From IMG/VR virus record IMGVR_UViG_2802429240_000010: 32,334 nucleotides of DNA; one strand, written 5' to 3'. The position numbers and the translations under genes were made by a program. The number at the start of each line of letters is the position of its first letter. The stretch's first letter is position 1. Source of the DNA: a virus. Lineage: Duplodnaviria > Heunggongvirae > Uroviricota > Caudoviricetes. Shown piece after piece: positions 1,658-28,073 of this stretch. Below the pieces are notes generated by a model. It had not been told where the DNA came from, did no database searches, and worked only from the letters and a program-made list of their open reading frames with translations.

Positions 1658-4105
1658 TTAACCGTCATGCATCATGCTGGCACGGGCGCGCGCACGTTTA
1701 TCCCGCTCGTATTTTTCGAGCGCATCCTGTAACTGGCGGTCAAGCTGTGTCCCCGGCGCAGTTCCACCCGTCAGGCTGATGTGATATTCGTTTTTACTCT
1801 GGTCCACATAAGAGCGGCCAGCCGGTGCCGTGACCGGCTGATAAGCCTGATAGCCTGCATAAGAGCTGGTCGCCGGAATATAACCACCGGTGCCATACGT
1901 GGCGGCATGAGTTCTGGCGGCGGTCTGGTCAAGTGTGTCTGACTCTTTGTTGATGACCCCGAGCTTTTCCAGTACCCAGTCAATGCCGCTGCGCAGTTTG
2001 TTGAACGCATTAAGCGGCAGCATCAGCGCGTCAGCCAGTGCCTGCCCGAACATGACGCCCGTGTCACGGCAACGGTTCAGGGTGTCCTGTGTGGCTTTGA
2101 CCGGGGCAATCAGGTTTTTAAACCACTGCCACGCGGCCTGTAACTTTTCGCCCAGCCAGTCAAACACCGGCTTAAGTGGCGTGAACAGTTCCCCCACCGG
2201 CGCAAATGCCGCTTTCAGCCCTTCCACCACACCGCCAAAGAATGCGCTGACAGGCTCCCAGTATTTACGGATAAGCAACGCCCCGGCGACAATGGCGGCC
2301 ACCACGGCCACAACCGGCCAGCTAATCGCCCCGATGGCCGTCATAACGGCACTGCCAACCGTCGTGAAGATTGCCCCCATTGCGCCTGCTGCCGCGATGA
2401 TGGCATTGATGCCGGTGATAACCGGCCAGGCTACGAGGCCAATGGCACCGATGATGCCAGTAAGCGCCAGTGCGCCACCGGCAATGAGACCAATGGTTGA
2501 CGCCAGTGATTTGTTTTTCTGTATCCAGCCGTCGAGTTTTAACACATACTTTGTGGCCGTCTGCGTGAGCTTACGCAGCGCGCCTTCCTGCTGGTCAAAC
2601 AGGTCAGTCCCCACCGCCTCATAAGCGGACTGAAACTCCTTAAAGTCACCGCCGAGGTTGTCCTGCATGATATTTACCAGCTCGGCGGTCTTCCCGTCTG
2701 AGGCTTTAAACGCAGCGGTCAGTTTGTCCAGCTTTCCGGTTGAGGCGGCAGTCATCAGCACAGCGGCGGCTGAGCTGGCCTCCTCCCCGAAAATGGTTTT
2801 CATGTATTCAGCCTGCTGGGCAGTACCGAGCCGGTTTTTCTCAAAACTGGCCTGCATTTCTTTCAGAATGGTAAATACTGGTCGGGTATTCCCCTTGCTG
2901 TCTGAGGTTTTCACGCCAAGCTCTTTGAGTGCATCCCATGCTTTTCCCGTCGGTGCCTGCAGGCGACTTAACACGGCACGGCTTCCCGTCCCCGCCATTG
3001 AGCCTGTGATTTTTGCATCATGCAGCGCCCCGACCATTGCGGCGGTTTCTTCAATGCTGACACCGGCATTTTTTGCCACAGGTGCGGCATAGGTCAGCGC
3101 ATCGCTCATGCCGTCAAAATCGGCGGCGGTTTTGTTCATCGTCATGGAGAGAACATCCCCGATATGAGCGACCTTATCGTTTGAAAGCTGAAAGGCAGAT
3201 TTCATCCCCATCAGCAGGGCGGCGTTTTCTTCCATCGTGCGGCGGTTCGCCAGCGCCATATTCAGTGTAACCGGCGTTGCCGCCTGAATGGCATCAACAT
3301 CCCCACCGGCTTTCGCAATAATAATCTGCGCACCGGCTGCATCATCTGCCGAGGCTGCGGTATTGTCGCCGAGCTGACGCGCCTGCTTGCGTAGTGCAGC
3401 CATTTCGGCGGAGTCTTTTGCCACACCTAGCACGGCCTGCAATTCTGAGTTTTTCTGCGCAAACTCATAACCGGGCATCAGCAGCTTAACTCCGGCCATC
3501 GTTCCCGCCGCCGCAATCCCCACACCGGCAGCGCCCACCGAGGCCATATTTCCGGCCAGTTCCTTTCCGGCCTGATAACGCTGTTTTACTGCGTTAAGTT
3601 TTGCCTGTTGCGCACTGACACGCGCCAGCGCATCACGCTGACGGTTAAGCTGTGCGGTGGTTTCACTGATACGGTTTTTCAGTCCCTGCTCATCATGTGC
3701 AAGATTGCGGGTATTAATTCCCACAGCGGCCAGTTCCCGCTGCTGGCGTTTAACGGAATCCGTCAGGCGGTTATATTTCGCCTGTAAGTCCTCCGCCGCT
3801 CGCTTTGCGGATTCCAGCACTTTCGCCTGAGCACGGGTCGGACGTTCGGTGTTTTTAAACTGTGTGGCAAGGGCTTCGGCTTCCTGCCGTGCCTTTTCAA
3901 GTGCATGACCAGTCACGGCGAGCTGTGCACTTGTCTTGCGAAATCCCTCAATACGGGATGCCTGACCGTTCAGCTCGCACAGTGATTTTTGTGTTTCCCG
4001 GATATCCCCCGACAGCGATTTGCTCGCTGTGCGGATGGATTTAAACGGGCGGGATGCCTGGTCAACAGCCCTGAGCAATACCTGTAATTTTACATTGTTA
4101 CTCAT
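1658..4105 (-). CDS. T: Tail tape measure protein (P2 gpT-like), 815 aa
   Basis: Long Ala/Gly-rich, coiled-coil-like protein downstream of the E/E' chaperone pair; length and position match P2 gpT. Confidence 0.9.
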   Translation of the reverse strand: MSNNVKLQVLLRAVDQASRPFKSIRTASKSLSGDIRETQKSLCELNGQASRIEGFRKTSAQLAVTGHALEKARQEAEALATQFKNTERPTRAQAKVLESAKRAAEDLQAKYNRLTDSVKRQQRELAAVGINTRNLAHDEQGLKNRISETTAQLNRQRDALARVSAQQAKLNAVKQRYQAGKELAGNMASVGAAGVGIAAAGTMAGVKLLMPGYEFAQKNSELQAVLGVAKDSAEMAALRKQARQLGDNTAASADDAAGAQIIIAKAGGDVDAIQAATPVTLNMALANRRTMEENAALLMGMKSAFQLSNDKVAHIGDVLSMTMNKTAADFDGMSDALTYAAPVAKNAGVSIEETAAMVGALHDAKITGSMAGTGSRAVLSRLQAPTGKAWDALKELGVKTSDSKGNTRPVFTILKEMQASFEKNRLGTAQQAEYMKTIFGEEASSAAAVLMTAASTGKLDKLTAAFKASDGKTAELVNIMQDNLGGDFKEFQSAYEAVGTDLFDQQEGALRKLTQTATKYVLKLDGWIQKNKSLASTIGLIAGGALALTGIIGAIGLVAWPVITGINAIIAAAGAMGAIFTTVGSAVMTAIGAISWPVVAVVAAIVAGALLIRKYWEPVSAFFGGVVEGLKAAFAPVGELFTPLKPVFDWLGEKLQAAWQWFKNLIAPVKATQDTLNRCRDTGVMFGQALADALMLPLNAFNKLRSGIDWVLEKLGVINKESDTLDQTAARTHAATYGTGGYIPATSSYAGYQAYQPVTAPAGRSYVDQSKNEYHISLTGGTAPGTQLDRQLQDALEKYERDKRARARASMMHDG

Positions 4106-17328: not shown

Positions 17329-17501
17329 TGTCAGGAGTCCTGAATAGTGATTAGAGGAGTCACATGTCGGCATCAGTTTCCCGACGATGCGCATCCTCCG
17401 CCATCAGTCCCGGATGGCTTATCACTGACACAACAGCACCTTAGCGAATCGCGGGGCGCGACTCAGTAGCCTTGCCGTGTATTCATCACGGCGAGGTATT
17501 C
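17329..17501. promoter_or_regulatory. Divergent late promoter region between O (minus) and P (plus)
   Basis: 173-bp gap between divergently transcribed head operons, as at P2 PO/PP; contains an imperfect direct repeat catcagtttcccg (17371-17383) / catcagtcccgg (17402-17413). I found no exact TGT-N12-ACA Ogr motif. Confidence 0.5.
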
Positions 17502-19274
17502 ATGACCATCACCACAGACACCACTCTTTTGCACGACCCGCGTCGTCAGGCGGCGCTGCTGTACTGGCAGGGGTTTTCCGTGCCGCAGATTGCCGCCATG
17601 TTGCAGATGAAACGCCCGACGGTGCAGAGCTGGAAACAGCGCGACGGCTGGGACAGCGTTGCCCCCATCAGCCGTGTCGAAATGAGTCTGGAAGCGCGGC
17701 TGACCCAGCTCATCATCAAACCGCAGAAAACCGGCGGTGACTTCAAGGAAATTGACCTGCTGGGACGCCAGATTGAACGACTGGCACGGGTCAACCGTTA
17801 CAGTCAGACCGGCAACGAGGCAGACCTTAATCCGAACGTCGCTAACCGCAACAAAGGCGGGCGCCGCAAACCGAAAAAGAATTTTTTCAGCGACGAAGCC
17901 ATCGAAAAGCTGGAGCAGATTTTCTTTGAGCAGTCTTTCGAATATCAGTTGCACTGGTATCGCGCCGGGCTTGAGCACCGCATCCGCGATATCCTGAAAT
18001 CCCGCCAGATTGGCGCAACGTTTTATTTTTCCCGCGAGGCGCTGCTGCGCGCCCTGAAAACCGGCCATAACCAGATTTTTCTGTCGGCCAGTAAAACGCA
18101 GGCGTATGTGTTCCGCGAATACATCATCGCCTTTGCCCGTCTGGTTGACGTTGACCTGACCGGTGACCCGATTGTCCTGGGCAATAACGGCGCAAAACTG
18201 ATTTTTCTCGGCACCAACTCCAACACCGCGCAGAGCCATAACGGCGACCTGTACGTCGATGAGATTTTCTGGATCCCGAATTTTCAGGTACTGCGTAAGG
18301 TGGCATCAGGTATGGCCTCACAGAGTCACCTGCGTTCGACCTATTTCTCCACCCCGTCCACGCTGGCGCACGACGCCTACCCGTTCTGGTCGGGTGAACT
18401 GTTTAACCGGGGACGCGCCAGCGCCGCTGAACGCGTGGAAATCGACGTCAGTCATAACGCACTTGCCGGAGGTCTTCTCTGTGCGGACGGCCAGTGGCGG
18501 CAGATTGTCACCATTGAGGACGCCCTGAAAGGCGGCTGCACGCTGTTCGACATTGAGCAGCTCAAACGCGAAAATAGCGCCGACGATTTTAAAAACCTGT
18601 TCATGTGTGAATTTGTTGACGACAAGGCGTCGGTGTTCCCGTTCGAGGAGCTGCAACGCTGCATGGTCGACACGCTGGAAGAATGGGAAGACTATGCGCC
18701 GTTTGTCGCGAATCCGTTCGGCTCCCGCCCGGTATGGATTGGTTACGACCCGTCACACCGTGGCGACAGCGCCGGATGCGTGGTACTGGCACCGCCGGTG
18801 GTGGCCGGTGGCAAATTCAGAATACTTGAGCGTCACCAGTGGAAAGGCATGGACTTTGCCACTCAGGCGGAATCCATCCGCAAACTCACCGAAAAATACA
18901 ACGTCGAATACATCGGTATTGATGCCACCGGCCTCGGTGTCGGCGTGTTCCAGCTCGTGCGCTCGTTCTATCCCGCCGCGCGCGACATCCGCTACACGCC
19001 GGAAATGAAAACCGCAATGGTGCTCAAGGCAAAAGACGTTATCCGTCGTGGCTGTCTGGAATATGACGTCAGCGCCACCGACATCACCAGCTCGTTTATG
19101 GCTATCCGCAAGACCATGACCAGCAGCGGACGCAGCGCCACCTATGAGGCCAGCCGCAGCGAGGAAGCCAGCCACGCCGACCTCGCCTGGGCGACCATGC
19201 ACGCCCTGTTAAATGAGCCACTCACCGCCGGTATCAGCACCCCGCTGACATCCACCATTCTGGAGTTTTACTGA
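17502..19274 (+). CDS. P: Terminase large (ATPase) subunit (P2 gpP-like), 590 aa
   Basis: From ATG 17502 (MTITTDTTLLHDPRRQ) the protein is 590 aa as in P2 gpP; the track ORF begins 10 codons earlier. Confidence 0.9.
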   Translation: MTITTDTTLLHDPRRQAALLYWQGFSVPQIAAMLQMKRPTVQSWKQRDGWDSVAPISRVEMSLEARLTQLIIKPQKTGGDFKEIDLLGRQIERLARVNRYSQTGNEADLNPNVANRNKGGRRKPKKNFFSDEAIEKLEQIFFEQSFEYQLHWYRAGLEHRIRDILKSRQIGATFYFSREALLRALKTGHNQIFLSASKTQAYVFREYIIAFARLVDVDLTGDPIVLGNNGAKLIFLGTNSNTAQSHNGDLYVDEIFWIPNFQVLRKVASGMASQSHLRSTYFSTPSTLAHDAYPFWSGELFNRGRASAAERVEIDVSHNALAGGLLCADGQWRQIVTIEDALKGGCTLFDIEQLKRENSADDFKNLFMCEFVDDKASVFPFEELQRCMVDTLEEWEDYAPFVANPFGSRPVWIGYDPSHRGDSAGCVVLAPPVVAGGKFRILERHQWKGMDFATQAESIRKLTEKYNVEYIGIDATGLGVGVFQLVRSFYPAARDIRYTPEMKTAMVLKAKDVIRRGCLEYDVSATDITSSFMAIRKTMTSSGRSATYEASRSEEASHADLAWATMHALLNEPLTAGISTPLTSTILEFY

Positions 19275-20477: not shown

Positions 20478-20496
20478 GTGCTTTCCCCGCCTCGCC
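20478..20496. other. cos: P2-type cos site (19-nt cohesive end sequence)
   Basis: gtgctttccccgcctcgcc is the exact reverse complement of the P2 cohesive end GGCGAGGCGGGGAAAGCAC as I recall it; it lies just past Q, as in P2. Confidence 0.85.
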
Positions 20497-20547
20497 CGCC
20501 CGCTTCGTGGGGCGGTTTTAATGCAGGTGCATTTAAGCCTCTAACCC

Positions 20548-20576
20548 TTGCATGTAAAGGACTTGTGGGATTAAAT
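20548..20576 (+). promoter_or_regulatory. Candidate sigma70 promoter for the DUF262-HEPN cargo operon
   Basis: TTGCAT (20548-20553), 17-bp spacer, TTAAAT (20571-20576); AAGGAG ribosome-binding site at 20627-20632, 7 nt before ATG 20640. Confidence 0.4.
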
Positions 20577-20639
20577 CAGTATAAAACTACGCATGCAAAC
20601 AAATGCAACTTATTGCAAATAAGCATAAGGAGAAAACAA

Positions 20640-21764
20640 ATGGCAAGAGTCCCAAGACAACCTGAACAAGTGATCACAGAAGAAGATAAAGTTGACCTGG
20701 ATAACCAGATCAAATCCATGCAAAAAATAACGGATCACCAAATTAGAGAGTTTCCTGTAAGTGTCATTGTTGACAAATTTCAGAAAGGATTAGAAACCGA
20801 CCAAGCAGAACTATACATACCTGATTATCAAAGGGAATTTGTTTGGAGCAATGTTCAAAAATCAAGATTCATTGAATCTCTTTTGCTAAATATTCCTATC
20901 CCATATGTATTTGTCGCCGATATCGGAAATGACGATGGGCGATTGGAAATCGTTGATGGTAGCCAGAGGATTAGAACACTTTATCATTTCCTAAATGATA
21001 AATTTACCCTTACTGGATTAAAAAAGCTAACTTCAGCCAACGGATTCAAATACTCTGACTTCACACCTGCACGTAAGCTTAGATTCGATAGAAAAACTAT
21101 TCGAATGATTGAACTCACTGAATTATGTGATGAAGAAGCAAGAAGGGAGATTTTCGATCGATTGAATACAGGTGGAATAAAACTCACGACAATGGAGCAA
21201 CGACAGGGCAGTAATGATGGGCCTTTTCTTGATGTTGTTAATAGACTATCAGAGTTTCCATTGTTTAGGGAAATATGCCCTCTAAACGATGCTAGGATCA
21301 GTCGTGGAGAATATCCAGAATTGGTTCTTAGATATTTTGCCTATTGTGATAACTATCTTAACTTTGAAAAAAGTGTTGATACTTTCTTAACCCAATATCT
21401 TGACCAACGCAATGAGTCATTTAGTCCTGAGCAAGAAGAAAAACTAACTGCACAATTTCAAGATATGTGTGAATTTGTCAAAACATATTTCCCCTATGGT
21501 TTCAGAAAGAATGCAACGGCAAACACTGTACCAAGAATTCGCTTTGAAGCGTTAGCTGTCGGTTCCACTTTGGCCTTAAAAACTGACTCTAACATAATAC
21601 CAACACCGGTAGAGGAATGGTTAAACTCAGAAGAGTTTATTAAACATACAAGATCTGATGCATCAAATTCAAAACCTAAAGTAAAAGCACGTATTGAATA
21701 TGTAAGAGACAAACTTTTAGGTGTGCAGACCGAAGATACTGTTCTAGATGATAGTGAGGAGTAA
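20640..21764 (+). CDS. DUF262 / ParB-like nuclease-domain protein (GmrSD-like N-terminal domain, no HNH/DUF1524 domain), 374 aa
   Basis: Strong ribosome-binding site and ATG at 20640. Contains DUF262 hallmark motifs IPDYQREFVW and EIVDGSQRIRT. The ~170-aa C-terminal part has no HNH motif I can see. The gene is AT-rich compared with the phage backbone. The track ORF start at 20478 lies inside cos and is an artefact. Confidence 0.75.
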   Translation: MARVPRQPEQVITEEDKVDLDNQIKSMQKITDHQIREFPVSVIVDKFQKGLETDQAELYIPDYQREFVWSNVQKSRFIESLLLNIPIPYVFVADIGNDDGRLEIVDGSQRIRTLYHFLNDKFTLTGLKKLTSANGFKYSDFTPARKLRFDRKTIRMIELTELCDEEARREIFDRLNTGGIKLTTMEQRQGSNDGPFLDVVNRLSEFPLFREICPLNDARISRGEYPELVLRYFAYCDNYLNFEKSVDTFLTQYLDQRNESFSPEQEEKLTAQFQDMCEFVKTYFPYGFRKNATANTVPRIRFEALAVGSTLALKTDSNIIPTPVEEWLNSEEFIKHTRSDASNSKPKVKARIEYVRDKLLGVQTEDTVLDDSEE

Positions 21765-21770
21765 CTATCC

Positions 21771-22502
21771 GTGGTCATCATGAACAGCAAAATTTTATTT
21801 TCTGAAAGAAAAGAAGATATAGAAAAATATTTTGATTTTGTTAAATTCATTATTGATGAGAGACCAACATTCTCGTACAAAGATCGCATAGCAGGCGAAT
21901 GTAAACACCGCGAAATTGATATCGAAATGACGCATATCCTAAAAGCCAATGCGTTTATTATATTATATAACTTAATTGAAGCCACTATATCTAATGCTAT
22001 TGAAGATATACATAATGAACTTAATTCGTGTGATGATCTTTGTGTCGATAAAATTTGCGAAAGTTTAACAAAGCTTGCCTTAAAAAAATTAGACCATCAT
22101 ATGGTGAGTGACATGGATTTTTCACAAGGTGATATAGCAAAACTAGTTCTAAAAAAATGGCTAGAGGAACACAAAAAACAAGTTCAAGCAGATAAAAACC
22201 CCCTATTTTCTGGAAATGTTGACGCACAGAAAATTAGGGATGTTGCTAGTATCTATGGTTTTTCCTCTCAAACAGATCGTTCAAAAACTCATAATGGTGG
22301 AAATTTAGTAAACATAAAAAAAGCAAGAAATGCATTGGCGCATGGTTCAGAATCCTTTTTAAACAAGGGTCAAGAAACGTCTATTGACAACCTTGAACTT
22401 CTTAAAAATGAAGTTTTCCATTACCTAGAAGAAATACTAGAAAACATACAAAAATACCTTGATGATCGCTTATACATACGATCATCAAGACTACAGGCTT
22501 AA
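21771..22502 (+). CDS. Putative HEPN-domain protein (Rx4H motif; MAE_28990/Swt1-like or Abi-like), ~243 aa
   Basis: Starts 7 nt after the upstream stop. GTG at 21771 has a GAGGAG ribosome-binding site 10 nt upstream; the alternative ATG at 21780 has none. Predicted alpha-helical protein with C-terminal KKARNALAHG (Rx4H). AT-rich. Confidence 0.6.
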   Translation: MVIMNSKILFSERKEDIEKYFDFVKFIIDERPTFSYKDRIAGECKHREIDIEMTHILKANAFIILYNLIEATISNAIEDIHNELNSCDDLCVDKICESLTKLALKKLDHHMVSDMDFSQGDIAKLVLKKWLEEHKKQVQADKNPLFSGNVDAQKIRDVASIYGFSSQTDRSKTHNGGNLVNIKKARNALAHGSESFLNKGQETSIDNLELLKNEVFHYLEEILENIQKYLDDRLYIRSSRLQA

Positions 22503-23536
22503 ACTATATTGTGCTCTTTTAGGTGAGTTATAATTGACTCACCTATAACCTCACCTAGTTTTACCGGTACAGCATTACCAATCATCCTACCAACATTCTT
22601 TATAGATACTTTCTCATTGGGTGCAGTAAAAACGTAATCCTTTGGAAACGTTTGTAACAATGCAGCCTCTCTCAGAGAAATTGCACGATTTTGCTCGGGA
22701 TGACCAAATCTGCCATTTCCAAAACCATAACATAGCGTAGTAATTGTAGGACTTGGTTTATCCCAATCCATACGTCCATATACACTAGCATAACCTTGCC
22801 CACTTTTCTTTATGTGGCATGATGCAATCAACTCTACTGGCCAGTCTCGCCATGTCCCTCCTGGTTTAGAGCAAGCAATACGTTTTAGATTTATATCACT
22901 TAATTTACTTGCTTTATGTAAAGGATCAACAGGATCCGTTTGACCAGCCTTTAATGGAGGAAGTCCGCCAATGCATTCTTTTACCGTCACCGCCTTTTCT
23001 ACTTTTGGTTTTACAAATGAAAGCGGCGCAAATTTAGATGCCAATAATACATGCCTAACTCTATTTTGCGGAACACCATAATCTACACATTCAACCTTTC
23101 CGGCCCAGACATGATAACCCAATGCCTCTAAACTATTATAGAAGTCACTATAAACAGAATGCTTCGTTACATCAGGTACATTTTCCATTGTAACGATCTC
23201 TGGATTAACCCCTCGAATTAAACGTTCAAATTCATAAAGAAGAGGCCACTTTTTATCATTTTTCTTATCGCGCCCTTGCGTATACCTTGAAAAAGGTTGG
23301 CACGGCGCACAACCAGCCAACACCCTTACCTGCGCACCTTCAAAAAGATCGTTAAGCTCGTCTTTGGTCACCAGAGAAATATCTTTTTCAATAAAAAGCG
23401 CACTGTTATTACTTTCATAAGCAGCCCGGCATGCACTCTCTATATCAATACCAGCGACTACATCTAATCCGGCTTGCTTTAAGCCATGAGTAAGCCCGCC
23501 AGCACCACAAAAAAGATCAACAACTTTTACCGCCAT
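22499..23536 (-). CDS. DNA (cytosine-5)-methyltransferase, 345 aa
   Basis: Motif I DLFCGAGG, motif IV GCAPCQPFS (catalytic Pro-Cys), motif VI ENV, motif VIII QNRVR, motif X GNAVPV. ATG at 23536 has a GGAGA ribosome-binding site; an upstream in-frame ATG at 23626 is possible. Its stop overlaps the stop of the convergent HEPN gene. Confidence 0.85.
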   Translation of the reverse strand: MAVKVVDLFCGAGGLTHGLKQAGLDVVAGIDIESACRAAYESNNSALFIEKDISLVTKDELNDLFEGAQVRVLAGCAPCQPFSRYTQGRDKKNDKKWPLLYEFERLIRGVNPEIVTMENVPDVTKHSVYSDFYNSLEALGYHVWAGKVECVDYGVPQNRVRHVLLASKFAPLSFVKPKVEKAVTVKECIGGLPPLKAGQTDPVDPLHKASKLSDINLKRIACSKPGGTWRDWPVELIASCHIKKSGQGYASVYGRMDWDKPSPTITTLCYGFGNGRFGHPEQNRAISLREAALLQTFPKDYVFTAPNEKVSIKNVGRMIGNAVPVKLGEVIGESIITHLKEHNIV

Positions 23537-23841
23537 TTTAGTCTCCGATTCATCCTCCGACAGAGTATAACTGTATCCTTCAAAAATCTCGAGCGTTTTA
23601 GCAAACAACAAGAATGCTCCCCACATCCAGCCCTAAGGCCTTATCCTAGCCTAGCTTTACTACAATTAATCCAACAATTTCTGTAAATACATCCATTCCC
23701 TCTCGTAACCGAATACTCTCAACATCCTTTCCACTAATGTACTGTTTTAAATGACTTTAACTTTACATAACTAACGCCTCGCTTCGCTCGTTGTTCAACC
23801 CCGCCAGCCCTGAAAACAAGTTTCACGACTGGCGGCGTTCT

Positions 23842-24048
23842 CTATCGTCTGCGTGGTGGTGGCGTAACTCTTGATTGACCGATATGATTAAACCGCCCGT
23901 AATTATCCCGGACTATTTCGGCACACCCGACCAGCTCATCGGGCGTCAGATTTTCGTTGACCATAATCCGCTGTAAACGCTGAACAATGGCCATCAGCTT
24001 GATATTTTTAGTTTTATGGTGCGGTATCTCGCCTGGTATTCTGTGCAT
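23842..24048 (-). CDS. Hypothetical small protein, 68 aa
   Basis: ATG at 24048 shares a base with the stop of the upstream ASCH gene, suggesting translational coupling; no recognisable motif. Confidence 0.4.
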   Translation of the reverse strand: MHRIPGEIPHHKTKNIKLMAIVQRLQRIMVNENLTPDELVGCAEIVRDNYGRFNHIGQSRVTPPPRRR

Positions 24049-24500
24049 TATCCAAGCCACCCGTTTTGCTTTGCATGCTCCATCTGTTCATCTGAATAAT
24101 TCCATATCCCATCCGTGGCAACCATTGCCCCACCAGACATCCCTGTCTCTGGTTCATACATAACAGCAAGGCCAAGCTGATGCATAATTTCATGATTAAT
24201 TCTGAATACCAGACCACGTTCACTAAGTTCTTTCCAGTTCACAATCTTATATGCGCCCGTATTAAGCAGCTCAATACTTAGCAAGACATAATCTTCCAGC
24301 CAGTCTGACAGGTCAGTAACATCTGTTATCCGGGCTTCAACCTTGCGCCCCGTAAACACACCCTGCACCCATTCATGCAAAATCAACGTGTCCCCGCGCT
24401 CATAATTACGGTCATTTTTCCGAAACTCTGCGCGTTTCTTTCCTTCCAGTACAAGGTCGAAATATTTTGCGTGCAGCTTTACCTCGTGAATTTTTGCCAT
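24048..24500 (-). CDS. ASCH-domain protein with a C-terminal extension carrying an HExxH motif, 150 aa
   Basis: ATG at 24500 shares a base with the A stop. N-terminus has the ASCH GxKxxExR signature (EGKKRAEFR). C-terminal tail contains HEIMH. Sits where P2 has orf91, directly after A. Confidence 0.65.
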   Translation of the reverse strand: MAKIHEVKLHAKYFDLVLEGKKRAEFRKNDRNYERGDTLILHEWVQGVFTGRKVEARITDVTDLSDWLEDYVLLSIELLNTGAYKIVNWKELSERGLVFRINHEIMHQLGLAVMYEPETGMSGGAMVATDGIWNYSDEQMEHAKQNGWLG

Positions 24501-26791
24501 TATGTCCACTCCATTACTGTTGAGAATCCCGGCCACTCATCAGCGACCGGATACGTGAATTTTTTCCCGTCATAATTTACAGTCGCGCCACGCGCCAGCG
24601 CCTCAAGCTCCCATCGCTGAGGCCTGATACCGTTCTGAGCAAGGTCAACGCGGATACGGGTGATTTGCATTCGTTCCGACCGGGTCAGTCTGGCCGATGG
24701 TGCAATTTCATGTGGTTTTAACGGGCTTCCGTTTCTTTGCTGACGACTTGGCGTTCTCCGACCGTGTTTTAATGCACCCCTGAGCGCCCTCACGACCTCC
24801 GGGTCATTCCATTCGATAACACCGTCATCAACCAGATTAAGCACTGCTGCAACGTGCTCAGAAGGTGTGGGAGCCGGTAACGAAGTATCACTACCGGTGA
24901 GCTTTCCACAGTTATTGACAGGACTCCGAGGCGCGGCGATGCCGCTTTTTAAAGTCAAAGGCTCAACGACCGGAACTTTCGGCACAATGCGCCAGTCCGT
25001 CGTTCTGGTGATATGAATATGACGCGCGCCGAGATGCGGCGCGTAAATGCCGACCACTCTCTCGACTTCTTCCTCGTACTCGTTAACGTCATCCGACGGG
25101 CTACGGGCAACCCTGACAGTCTGACAATCGCGCGGGACATTTGCCCCACCCTGCGCGCTGATATACAACGCAAAATCACCACTGTCTGCGGCAGCGCGAG
25201 CAGCCTCGACGCGTTCGTCAAACTCATCAGCAATGCTGACGCCGCTAGGCAATTTGCGTAGTTCACGGTAAGCCCCCATTGTCGGCAGGCCAACCGTTTT
25301 AAATTGTGGAATACGCCACGTTGACGCCCATGCGGTAACAGCCGCTGCAGTATCTTTCAGCGGCCTGCCGGTATCGTTATCGAGCTGACCATCCAGTGCA
25401 TAGCCGTCGATGTTTTTTGAGATGTATTTCGCGATATACCCCGCAGCACCGCCCCGGTTAAGATGTTTTGCCTGAAAACGGTTTCGCGCGGCTCCTCTTT
25501 CGTCGCCATCCTCTTTGAGCGCATAGCGACGCATGATTTCGATAATCTGGTTACGCTGGCGTGGATTACAAAAAAGCATCATATGCCAGTGCGGCGTTCC
25601 GTCGTGGTGTGGCTCGACGACTCGCAAACCGTAGACCTGTAAATCATTATCCTTGAATGCCGTGCGCATCAGGCTCCAGATACGGCAAAGATAACGCTGC
25701 GCATCCTTTGGATTAAATGCCTCATCGTTCCAGCCGTGATTAAGCTGAACGGTTTTACTTTCGCCTTTTCCGACCTGACGTGTCGGGTGATACTTTGACG
25801 GCGCGGTCAGCGTGATAAACATCCCCACATCACCCTCTGCGGCGGCGTAACGCTCAATACCGGCAATGGTGTTCATCAGCTCCATCCGGCGAATTTCAGG
25901 ATTAGAAATACTGCCCATCACCTTACTGATAAGGTCGATGCGTTCGCCGGTTTCCCTGTTTTCGAGGTCACACGATTTAAGAAATTCCAGATTTGCCTGG
26001 CGGCGTGCACGTACATCACGAATGGCATGTTTACTGGCATAAGGAGAACGGTCTTTATTCACCGCCCCGACAGCAATCAGTAACGCCTCATGCCAGCGCA
26101 TACGCTGGCCTTTAAGCTGATGAGTCCACCACTCATCGTTAAACAGACGGGCAATGGCAGAATATGCCCGCCTCGTGGTCATCTGTCCTTTACGGTATTT
26201 TTTCCAGTAGAGCGGGGAAATATTGAAAGCACGTGCAGCGCCAGCAACATGACCATAGAGGTGAGCCTGCGCCTCATCCGTAAACAGCGATTCTTTTTCG
26301 CCATGCGCATCCACCCAGGCATCGCTGAGTTCCTCATACATCATGAAAAGCTGCGATGAGATACGGACGGCAAATTTTTTCAGCTCCTTGTCATTCATTC
26401 CCGGCAGGCGTGCATACTGGTCGCGCTCTGCCAGAAACAGCAACGACGCGTCGGTGTTCATTTCATGGCGCTGATTCACGCGCTCAATGCGCGGCCATAA
26501 ACGACGCTGAAAAGTGGATGTGAGGAAATAAAACCCGTGTAGCGGACTTTTATTGCGCCGGATGTAGTCATAGCGTGAAGTAAACAGCGAGCGCAAAAAG
26601 TAAGGCAGGCGGTTAATCGTGGATAAAACACCTTGCACCTGACGCATCTCGTCACGTGTAAGGGTTCTTTCGCGCCCGACGGCCTCGCGTGGCGCGTTCC
26701 ATGCATAAGCACCGGTAAACGCCTTACCGGTGCCTGCAGCAAATGCTGACGGAGGTACGCAGGTGTATTGCTCCTGGAAAGAATGACTCAT
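24500..26791 (-). CDS. A: Replication initiation endonuclease (P2 gpA-like, rolling-circle), 763 aa
   Basis: Near full-length match to P2 gpA as I recall it (VPPSAFAAGTGK...FTYPVADEWPGFSTVMEWT); size ~761 aa. Confidence 0.9.
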   Translation of the reverse strand: MSHSFQEQYTCVPPSAFAAGTGKAFTGAYAWNAPREAVGRERTLTRDEMRQVQGVLSTINRLPYFLRSLFTSRYDYIRRNKSPLHGFYFLTSTFQRRLWPRIERVNQRHEMNTDASLLFLAERDQYARLPGMNDKELKKFAVRISSQLFMMYEELSDAWVDAHGEKESLFTDEAQAHLYGHVAGAARAFNISPLYWKKYRKGQMTTRRAYSAIARLFNDEWWTHQLKGQRMRWHEALLIAVGAVNKDRSPYASKHAIRDVRARRQANLEFLKSCDLENRETGERIDLISKVMGSISNPEIRRMELMNTIAGIERYAAAEGDVGMFITLTAPSKYHPTRQVGKGESKTVQLNHGWNDEAFNPKDAQRYLCRIWSLMRTAFKDNDLQVYGLRVVEPHHDGTPHWHMMLFCNPRQRNQIIEIMRRYALKEDGDERGAARNRFQAKHLNRGGAAGYIAKYISKNIDGYALDGQLDNDTGRPLKDTAAAVTAWASTWRIPQFKTVGLPTMGAYRELRKLPSGVSIADEFDERVEAARAAADSGDFALYISAQGGANVPRDCQTVRVARSPSDDVNEYEEEVERVVGIYAPHLGARHIHITRTTDWRIVPKVPVVEPLTLKSGIAAPRSPVNNCGKLTGSDTSLPAPTPSEHVAAVLNLVDDGVIEWNDPEVVRALRGALKHGRRTPSRQQRNGSPLKPHEIAPSARLTRSERMQITRIRVDLAQNGIRPQRWELEALARGATVNYDGKKFTYPVADEWPGFSTVMEWT

Positions 26792-27795
26792 TCACATACA
26801 CCGGCATAGACACTACTGCAAACTGACTTATCATTCACCGAAGCCAGCAAATCAAACTGTGCCCCGCCACGCGTGGTCATCGCCCAGTCACGATAAGACT
26901 CAATTCCGTAAGCATCGACAGTAATAATATCAATGCGGCGTTCCGCACGACGCGGGTCATGAGTTGACGGGAAGAAAGTAGAATTTCCGCGTCTGGAGCA
27001 TGCGGCGACAAGTCGCTCCCATTCCGCAACACGCTTAACCTCTTCCGGCCAGCGACTAAAAATTTCAGCTAATTCAGACTTTCTGGCGTGGATGCAGGGC
27101 ATACAACCGACACGACTGCATCCCTGCTGGTATAACGGATTAGGTTTAATTCCATGACGTCTTGCAAATGCAAATACCTCCTCATGCGTCCAGTTCAGAA
27201 TAGGACGGTATACATGGAGCCCGGGCGTATTGTCCGCATCCTCTTCCCAGGCAGGCAGACCCGCGCGCGCAGGAGACTCCTGAGCGCGAACCCCCTGCCA
27301 GCTAATTACCTCATCAAACTCATTAAGCGCAGGTAACACGACCTGAGTACGTACTGGCTCATGTTTAAGGTCAAAAGTGCAAAATCTGGCTTTAGTGGAA
27401 GGAAATCGCCCTTTCCACATGCACAAATCAAGAAATGGGATACCAGTAGGCTTGAGAATTTCCAGCGCACAATTGATGCGCTCTGCCGCTTCCCCCGGAG
27501 ACATTCCGCACTCTTCAACCAGAGAAACAGGCCATTTCTCAGCAATAAACTTGCGCTTACCTTCAATCTGTCGAGAGAAGTCAGCTTTAACCCGTTTAAC
27601 CGGCCCGAGTCGGTTCTCCAGATAATCGAGATACTCCATTGTCTGCGGATGCTCATGCCCGGTGTCTGCAAAAACCGGCAAAAAATGCACACCGCTTTCA
27701 ATACCAACAAGCCATTGAGCAAGGCTATCCTTTCCGCCAGAAACAGAAATAATATTGATAGAGCTTTCAGCTCGGCAGCGGGTATCAACTATCAT
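26788..27795 (-). CDS. PAPS-reductase / DndC-like PP-loop family protein, 335 aa
   Basis: PP-loop motif SGGKDS near the N-terminus (ISVSGGKDSLAQW); C-terminal cysteine cluster CSRVGCMPC; stop overlaps the A start (ATGA). Confidence 0.8.
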   Translation of the reverse strand: MIVDTRCRAESSINIISVSGGKDSLAQWLVGIESGVHFLPVFADTGHEHPQTMEYLDYLENRLGPVKRVKADFSRQIEGKRKFIAEKWPVSLVEECGMSPGEAAERINCALEILKPTGIPFLDLCMWKGRFPSTKARFCTFDLKHEPVRTQVVLPALNEFDEVISWQGVRAQESPARAGLPAWEEDADNTPGLHVYRPILNWTHEEVFAFARRHGIKPNPLYQQGCSRVGCMPCIHARKSELAEIFSRWPEEVKRVAEWERLVAACSRRGNSTFFPSTHDPRRAERRIDIITVDAYGIESYRDWAMTTRGGAQFDLLASVNDKSVCSSVYAGVCE

Positions 27796-28073
27796 TTAGA
27801 TTTCCCCGCACAGAGAAACGCAGTCAGACACTGCTGACCGAGCTGCTCAACCTGAGAGCTCAGCGCCTCAAAAGAGACAGCGTTACCGCTCAAAATATCG
27901 TGATGGATCAGACCGGAAACGAGCTGGTTTAATTTGGGGTAATAGCCGACAACATCCAGCCACTCTTTACCGGCATTCTTCCCGGTTTCAGCGGTCTTTC
28001 TCTCCTGCAAAATGAACTGAAAACGGTCATTTGTGACGACATAACGCTCGCCAATCTCGATACGAATGCTCAT
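27792..28073 (-). CDS. Hypothetical protein, 93 aa
   Basis: ORF in the early operon with 4-nt overlap onto the PAPS-reductase-like gene; no recognisable motif. Confidence 0.5.
   Translation of the reverse strand: MSIRIEIGERYVVTNDRFQFILQERKTAETGKNAGKEWLDVVGYYPKLNQLVSGLIHHDILSGNAVSFEALSSQVEQLGQQCLTAFLCAGKSK

Follow-up and report, generated by a model that had tools for sequence, protein, structure and literature searches.

The gene orf91 of phage P2 lies directly after gene A and encodes a protein of 109 residues (Orf91, NP_046796), whose function is listed in the literature as 'unknown', or which is called 'essential' without support. In the Yersinia phage L-413C and in other Peduoviruses, the place directly after A is occupied by a gene whose 150-residue product carries two domains, ASCH (DUF3850) and DUF7415, and in phage Wphi by two ORFs, gp91 and gp92. 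The YqfB-type N4-acetylcytidine amidohydrolases, an ASCH subfamily, possess a catalytic Lys-Thr-Glu triad, and the 80-residue 'activating signal cointegrator' of Enterococcus faecalis (PDB 3IUW) is also a DUF3850/ASCH protein. The only fusions mentioned in the DUF3850 literature are those with ParB-CTPase, and a literature search on DUF7415 (PF24187) retrieved no paper or experiment.

Here we analyse the corresponding gene in a viral sequence of 32,334 nucleotides (Caudoviricetes, IMG/VR record IMGVR_UViG_2802429240_000010), the whole of which is called the window below. An earlier note on this DNA had described the product as an ASCH-domain protein whose C-terminal part carries the HExxH pattern of zincin metallopeptidases. 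We conclude that the gene is probably the full-length form of P2-family orf91 and, within the early (replication) operon, the last of the conserved genes.

Results

Organization of the locus

The features relevant to the analysis are the following:
24048..24500, minus strand: coding sequence, stop codon included, of the 150-residue ASCH(DUF3850)-DUF7415 protein, the long form of P2-family orf91
24498..24502, minus strand: TAATG overlap between the gpA stop and the start of the ASCH-DUF7415 gene
24046..24050, minus strand: TAATG in which the ASCH-DUF7415 gene stops and the 68-aa ORF starts
24500..26791, minus strand: gpA, rolling-circle replication initiator, directly upstream in the same operon (Pfam Phage_GPA, 6.7e-123)
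23842..24048, minus strand: 68-aa ORF (PHROG 11386, match at 5.3e-39), the conserved downstream partner
27792..28073, minus strand: Orf83-like protein of the DUF5405 family, in the same early operon (by similarity to the L041 fusion described below)
24273..24491, minus strand: ASCH/DUF3850 domain, residues 4-76, a minimal PUA-like β-barrel
24417..24440, minus strand: GxKxxExR signature of ASCH, G21 K22 K23 R24 A25 E26 F27 R28 (from the translation)
24093..24245, minus strand: DUF7415 core, residues 86-136 (Pfam PF24187, structural model and family alignments)
24180..24194, minus strand: HEIMH, residues 103-107, on helix 97-109, the local spelling of a family motif

The gene follows gpA, which encodes 763 residues, and overlaps its neighbours on both sides. 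Its ATG (24500-24498) and the gpA TAA (24502-24500) have one base in common, a GGAG is found 8 nt upstream of this ATG, and its own TAA (24050-24048) overlaps the ATG of the 68-aa ORF by one base as well. The presence of TAATG overlaps at both gene ends agrees with the earlier proposal that the gene is translationally coupled to gpA and to the 68-aa ORF. A promoter and terminator scan between 23400 and 24600 gave nothing above chance and no terminator. The gene had also been placed at the border between the early operon and a defence hotspot, a genomic setting that is upheld; formally, the gpA-gpQ interval begins with this gene.

Regarding the surroundings, a gene for a 335-residue PAPS-reductase-domain protein (26788-27795, minus strand; PF01507, E 1.4e-35) is located between the Orf83-like gene and gpA and overlaps both gene boundaries. 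Since Orf83 lies directly before A in P2 and Wphi, this gene looks inserted into the early operon. On the other side of the locus, a C5 cytosine DNA methyltransferase gene (22499-23626, minus strand; PF00145, 6.1e-55) occupies the position of Mth of Wphi; a link between this methylase and the adjacent ASCH-DUF7415 gene was considered and rejected, the association being inconsistent across loci. The gpA-gpQ hotspot further contains a candidate two-gene defence cassette, in which a DUF262-type protein (20478-21764, plus strand) matches the PADLOC models NsnA (2.7e-55) and PD-T4-2_A (6.6e-34), and a HEPN protein (21771-22502, plus strand) matches HEPN_MAE_28990 (1.2e-19) and no PADLOC model.

Comparison with P2-like phages

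The window protein is 94-97% identical to the products of Peduovirus genes annotated in RefSeq as 'DUF3850 domain-containing protein' (PHROG 1812). L-413C orf91 is the same gene, with the same two domains, and the window copy differs in starting one codon later (ATA-ATG compared to ATG-ATG), which affects nothing essential. Between these two copies, all 5 changes in the ASCH half are synonymous (0 non-synonymous), and dN/dS is 0.27 in the DUF7415 half; judging from these substitutions, both halves are under purifying selection. As dS is three-fold higher in the second half than in the ASCH half, the comparison fits recombination at the linker.

The first ~75 residues of P2 Orf91, which correspond to ASCH, are nearly identical to those of the window protein. 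By contrast, P2 Orf91 is devoid of DUF7415, and P2 also lacks the 68-aa ORF. The left edge of the P2 tin/old cassette is located inside orf91 (L002, NC_001895, 3817-4146), at the ASCH/DUF7415 junction (~codon 76), so that P2 Orf91 is composed of the ASCH domain and an unrelated 33-residue tail. In Wphi (L001, AY135739, 3227-3742), the DNA of the same locus is ~95% identical and is followed by the Mth cytosine methylase gene as in the window, but four single-base insertions relative to the window and L-413C split the gene in two ORFs. These insertions are probably errors in the 2003 record.

More distant relatives were also found. A Salmonella P2-like prophage encodes an ASCH-DUF7415 protein ~55% identical to that of the window, together with a 68-aa ORF homologue of 74% identity, and four divergent loci of the P2-like type have ASCH and DUF7415 in separate genes next to each other, in either order. 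E. coli ORFs in which the N-terminus of Cox, B or A runs into DUF7415 (P0017, P0019, P0034, P0040 and P0041) were discarded as not being real architectures. They contain the C-terminal part of the gene and resemble what internal deletions leave behind in decayed P2-like prophages whose hotspot-proximal end is kept.

The protein is composed of two catalogued domains

Pfam assigned residues 4-76 to both DUF3850 (64.5 bits, cut-off 22.9) and ASCH (41.8 bits, cut-off 21.2), and residues 86-128 to DUF7415 (PF24187; 54 bits, cut-off 27, 1.9e-14), while PHROG 1812 spans the whole protein (E 1.7e-81). The protein is a catalogued DUF3850 + DUF7415 member, with near-identical copies annotated among the RefSeq phages. 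The sequence EGKKRAEFR occupies residues 20-28 and provides the GxKxxExR signature as G21-K23-E26-R28, a stretch that aligns with KERRKTFEIRKNDRN of PDB 3IUW; the PUA-like β-barrel fold of ASCH/DUF3850 was also recovered. The domain scores and the motif bear out the ASCH/PUA-like N-terminus recognized in the earlier note. Regarding the remainder of the protein, which that note called a C-terminal extension, the region does exist but is an independent catalogued domain, PF24187, rather than a tail.

When residues 80-150 were modelled alone, a confident prediction was obtained (pLDDT 93.8, pTM 0.79), composed of two helices, a β-hairpin, a loop and a lineage-specific C-terminal helix. The DUF7415 elements are helix 89-94, helix 97-109 and the hairpin 111-114/124-127, followed by the DGxWxY loop. 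Acidic residues outweigh basic ones in the DUF7415 core (mean net charge -3.8). When all sequences in the PDB were searched with a DUF7415 profile, none matched, and a search of BFVD returned solely other DUF7415 phage proteins and no functional relative.

HEIMH is a local spelling of a family motif

To evaluate the HEIMH sequence, homologues were taken from a profile search of a set of 5.8 billion proteins, which gave 145 DUF7415 matches, and from 1.84 billion cluster representatives scanned exhaustively with HMMER, which gave 198 clusters at E <= 1e-3. The family motif reads G-L-[IV]-x-R-I-N-x-E-[IV]-L-H-P-L-G-L-A ... P-E-T-G-x-S ... D-D-G-x-W-x-Y. The window protein keeps all the invariant core residues (G96, L97, N102, G110 and S122) and departs from the motif by P108Q, R115Y and D129T; N102, E104, H107, S122 and D130 are the near-invariant polar residues of the domain.

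Across the family, the segment around HEIMH is R-I-N-[R/H/K]-E-[IV]-L-H-P-L-G-L-A. The second His, at position 107, is 98% conserved and position 104 is Glu in 88-89% of members. Position 103, that of the first His, is Arg in 34%, His in 22-25% and Lys in 17-21%, then Thr, Asn or Tyr (Tyr 7%); the values of 22% His, 34% Arg and 17% Lys were obtained from 241 DUF7415 instances. Among the ASCH-DUF7415 homologues themselves, HEIMH is replaced by YEVLH or HEVLN in Salmonella and by REILH in an Enterobacter-type protein (L029). Helical periodicity would place R100, position 103, E104 and H107 together on a single polar face.

The surroundings of the motif were also compared with those of zincins. 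No third zinc ligand stands in register, either as HExxHxxGxxH/D or in a downstream Glu helix: position 113, where metzincins carry the third ligand, is aliphatic throughout the family (Val, Met, Ile or Leu), and the sole helix after the motif (137-145) is not part of the conserved core and is missing in most members. The mixed β-sheet of zincins, with its substrate-binding edge strand on the active-site helix, was not found in the model. Acidic residues do follow HEIMH, as the earlier note had pointed out, at E116, E118, D130, D137, E138 and E141.

Two HExxH sequences are observed in the window, compared to 0.66 expected, when all stop-to-stop segments of at least 100 residues are considered, and the occurrence of HEIMH alone is not beyond chance. 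The second copy, HELEH (18945-18959, minus strand), is found in a 149-residue ORF antisense within a 600-residue plus-strand gene (17472-19274); its location in an antisense ORF makes it a built-in control, indicating that the motif arises by chance. As read from the family alignments, HEIMH is a chance spelling, in which a His occupies a variable, usually basic position beside a conserved E-x-x-H.

These results answer the alignment and structure checks that the earlier note had proposed. Its reading of the region as a zincin metallo-hydrolase fails, as HExxH is not conserved and neither a third ligand nor a zincin fold is present: the alignment of homologues shows that the first His is variable, and the confident model of residues 80-150 has another fold. 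Its caveat that the HExxH could be fortuitous was justified, given the 2 observed against 0.66 expected and the variability of His103.

Distribution and partners of DUF7415

A tblastn search with one stand-alone DUF7415 member matched 829 phage records. Taken separately, ASCH and DUF7415 are each present in more than a thousand phage records; fused, they are found in only 29 (29 of 1085 records). Stand-alone or otherwise fused DUF7415 proteins display the same ~50-residue domain and motif as the window protein but differ from it in partners and genomic positions, the ASCH fusion being restricted to enterobacterial P2-like phages. In T5-like phages, DUF7415 is present in T5.107, between nrdD and the D1 helicase gene, and in Klebsiella T4-like phages a small DUF7415 ORF lies between nrdD and nrdG. 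Longer representatives carry a dATP/dGTP pyrophosphohydrolase (3, PF04447), DUF3850 (2), an Rv2179c-like exonuclease, a thymidylate kinase or a ClpX-type zinc finger. A MazG-like N-terminus suspected by eye in DUF7415 proteins of 173-185 residues (L068 type) was left unconfirmed by Pfam and PDB sequence searches.

It was also observed that two unrelated large phages, one being ENC19, a T4-like phage of Enterobacter, and the other a metagenomic phage of 178 kb, have in common the gene order NUDIX, one gene, DUF7415 (L004, 4215-5261; L009, 4271-5225). The middle gene is a 129-residue ORF without Pfam match in ENC19 and encodes a DUF1937 protein in the metagenomic phage.

To examine the genomic context, IMG/VR was scanned with the domain profile, yielding 80 loci. 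A gpA homologue was present within 3 kb and on the same strand in 61 of these; as loci were ranked by similarity to a P2-type query and the top 80 retained, this linkage is partly a sampling effect and is correlative. The gpA homologues of the 61 loci are 34-80% identical to the gpA of the window, and a homologue of the 68-aa ORF was detected in 19 of the 80 loci. Several arrangements were encountered: ASCH-DUF7415 directly after gpA, usually followed by the 68-aa ORF homologue; another N-terminal region fused to DUF7415, likewise directly after gpA; DUF5405-DUF7415 directly before gpA; and larger fusions or free-standing DUF7415 copies 0.6-1 kb after gpA. In a Pectobacterium prophage, a free-standing DUF7415 copy is coupled to the gpA start.

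Three early-operon components of the window, ASCH, the Orf83-like DUF5405 protein and the 68-aa ORF, are found fused to DUF7415 elsewhere. The Orf83-like protein is 50% identical over 86 residues to the N-terminal part of the L041 protein, a 157-residue fusion of DUF5405 (P2 Orf83 family) and DUF7415. Such DUF5405-DUF7415 fusions were observed in loci L039-L059 (~2701-3174), a sizeable set of P2-like viral contigs, directly upstream of gpA genes whose products are ~36% identical to that of the window. The 68-aa ORF matches the N-terminus of P0153 with an E-value of 4e-8. P0153 (L013, 2597-3163) is a 188-residue protein composed of an orf68-like N-terminus, a ClpX-type C4 zinc finger, which scores below the Pfam threshold (20.2 compared to 27 bits), and DUF7415. 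Its gene is flanked by a Toprim/DUF5906 primase-helicase gene, which directly precedes it, and a Gp49/HigB-like gene, which follows it.

Discussion

The reading that we consider the most probable is that of a two-domain protein of the early operon in which HEIMH forms no zinc site and DUF7415 is a docking or adaptor module. The gene would be co-translated with gpA, and its product would fold as two independent domains joined by a short linker. The ASCH barrel, with the GxKxxExR motif in its cleft, may bind RNA, a nucleotide or a modified-base ligand, and DUF7415, an acidic α/β mini-domain of ~50 residues, may act as a protein-protein docking element of the replication-stage gene set. DUF7415 would then be the constant element, to which phages attach interchangeable partner domains and which they keep beside the replication initiator; it would attach ASCH to a conserved host factor or to the machinery of the replication stage, probably together with the product of the 68-aa ORF. 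The polar stripe formed by R100, [R/H/K]103, E104 and H107 could be part of the interface. An adaptor role is favoured because DUF7415 is acidic, small, found at either end of varied partners and beside initiators, and dispensable in P2. Its absence from P2 indicates that the domain is dispensable for P2-type replication, and the location of the gene between nrdD and nrdG or near NUDIX in T4-like phages implies that the partner there cannot be gpA itself.

The position of the gene at the start of the gpA-gpQ interval, which is defined as a hotspot, raises the question of whether it is rather hotspot cargo, that is, a defence or counter-defence effector whose PUA-like ASCH domain senses modified nucleic acid. 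Such a role is suggested by the tin/old cassette of P2, which replaces everything from the domain junction onward, and by the C5 methylase and the DUF262/HEPN pair just downstream in the window; moreover, PUA-superfamily domains are described as modification sensors in restriction enzymes. However, the PADLOC defence-protein models matched neither the ASCH-DUF7415 protein nor the 68-aa ORF product, the gene lies on the early-operon strand with its translation coupled to that of gpA, its ASCH half is almost invariant among Peduoviruses, and the association with a methylase is inconsistent, both L-413C and the Salmonella locus lacking one. DUF7415 also stays beside gpA where gpA is only 34-38% identical, which is the behaviour of a core accessory gene and not of exchangeable cargo. 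We regard the cargo hypothesis as quite improbable.

Regarding DUF7415 itself, the near-invariance of N102, E104, H107, S122 and D130 across very divergent phages may just as well point to a site for a ligand, a metal or catalysis. The domain would then be a small non-zincin ligand- or metal-binding or catalytic unit, acting alongside ASCH on nucleotides or a nucleotide-derived molecule, in line with the abundance of nucleotide enzymes in its fusions and neighbourhoods (dATP/dGTP pyrophosphohydrolase, thymidylate kinase, NUDIX, DUF1937, NrdD/NrdG). This explanation seems unlikely to us: DUF7415 is tiny and without recognisable relatives in fold, polar residues conserved in a mini-domain often serve its structure, and P2 manages without DUF7415. 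The reading of the region as a zincin-type metallohydrolase, with zinc bound by H103 and H107, E104 as catalytic base, a downstream acidic residue as third ligand and ASCH providing the targeting, is extremely improbable. HEIMH does lie on a helix with its histidines at i and i+4, E104 and H107 are highly conserved, a Gly stands at +3 after the motif as in metzincins, and acidic residues follow; nevertheless, the non-conservation of HExxH refutes it. The likeness to zincin metallopeptidases is merely a five-residue string on a helix, and DUF7415 is, in addition, far too small. A fusion of ASCH with a zincin would have been unusual among effectors; its zincin part, however, is an artefact of motif spotting. 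A bare HExxH is to be checked for conservation before it is interpreted, and the present case is a clean example.

Returning to the docking or adaptor reading, a broader version of it can be formulated, which we put forward tentatively and hold to be rather unlikely. DUF7415 would be a fold-novel mini-domain, so far overlooked, serving as the constant docking element of a modular accessory system on phage replication initiators; by swapping partners (ASCH, Orf83/DUF5405, an orf68-like region carrying a ClpX-type zinc finger, nucleotide hydrolases), it would bring various activities that process nucleotides or nucleic acids to a conserved host factor or to the replication complex. In the literature that could be searched, neither the DUF7415-gpA linkage nor the partner swapping is described. 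The gene as initially posed is a common, annotated Peduovirus gene and matters little. DUF7415, however, is widespread and has no solved fold relative, and its persistent linkage to gpA, together with the swapping of its partners, offers a handle on the accessory genes of the P2 early operon (Orf83, Orf91 and the 68-aa ORF). If true, the proposal would have the modest benefit of defining DUF7415 as a replication-linked adaptor of novel fold.
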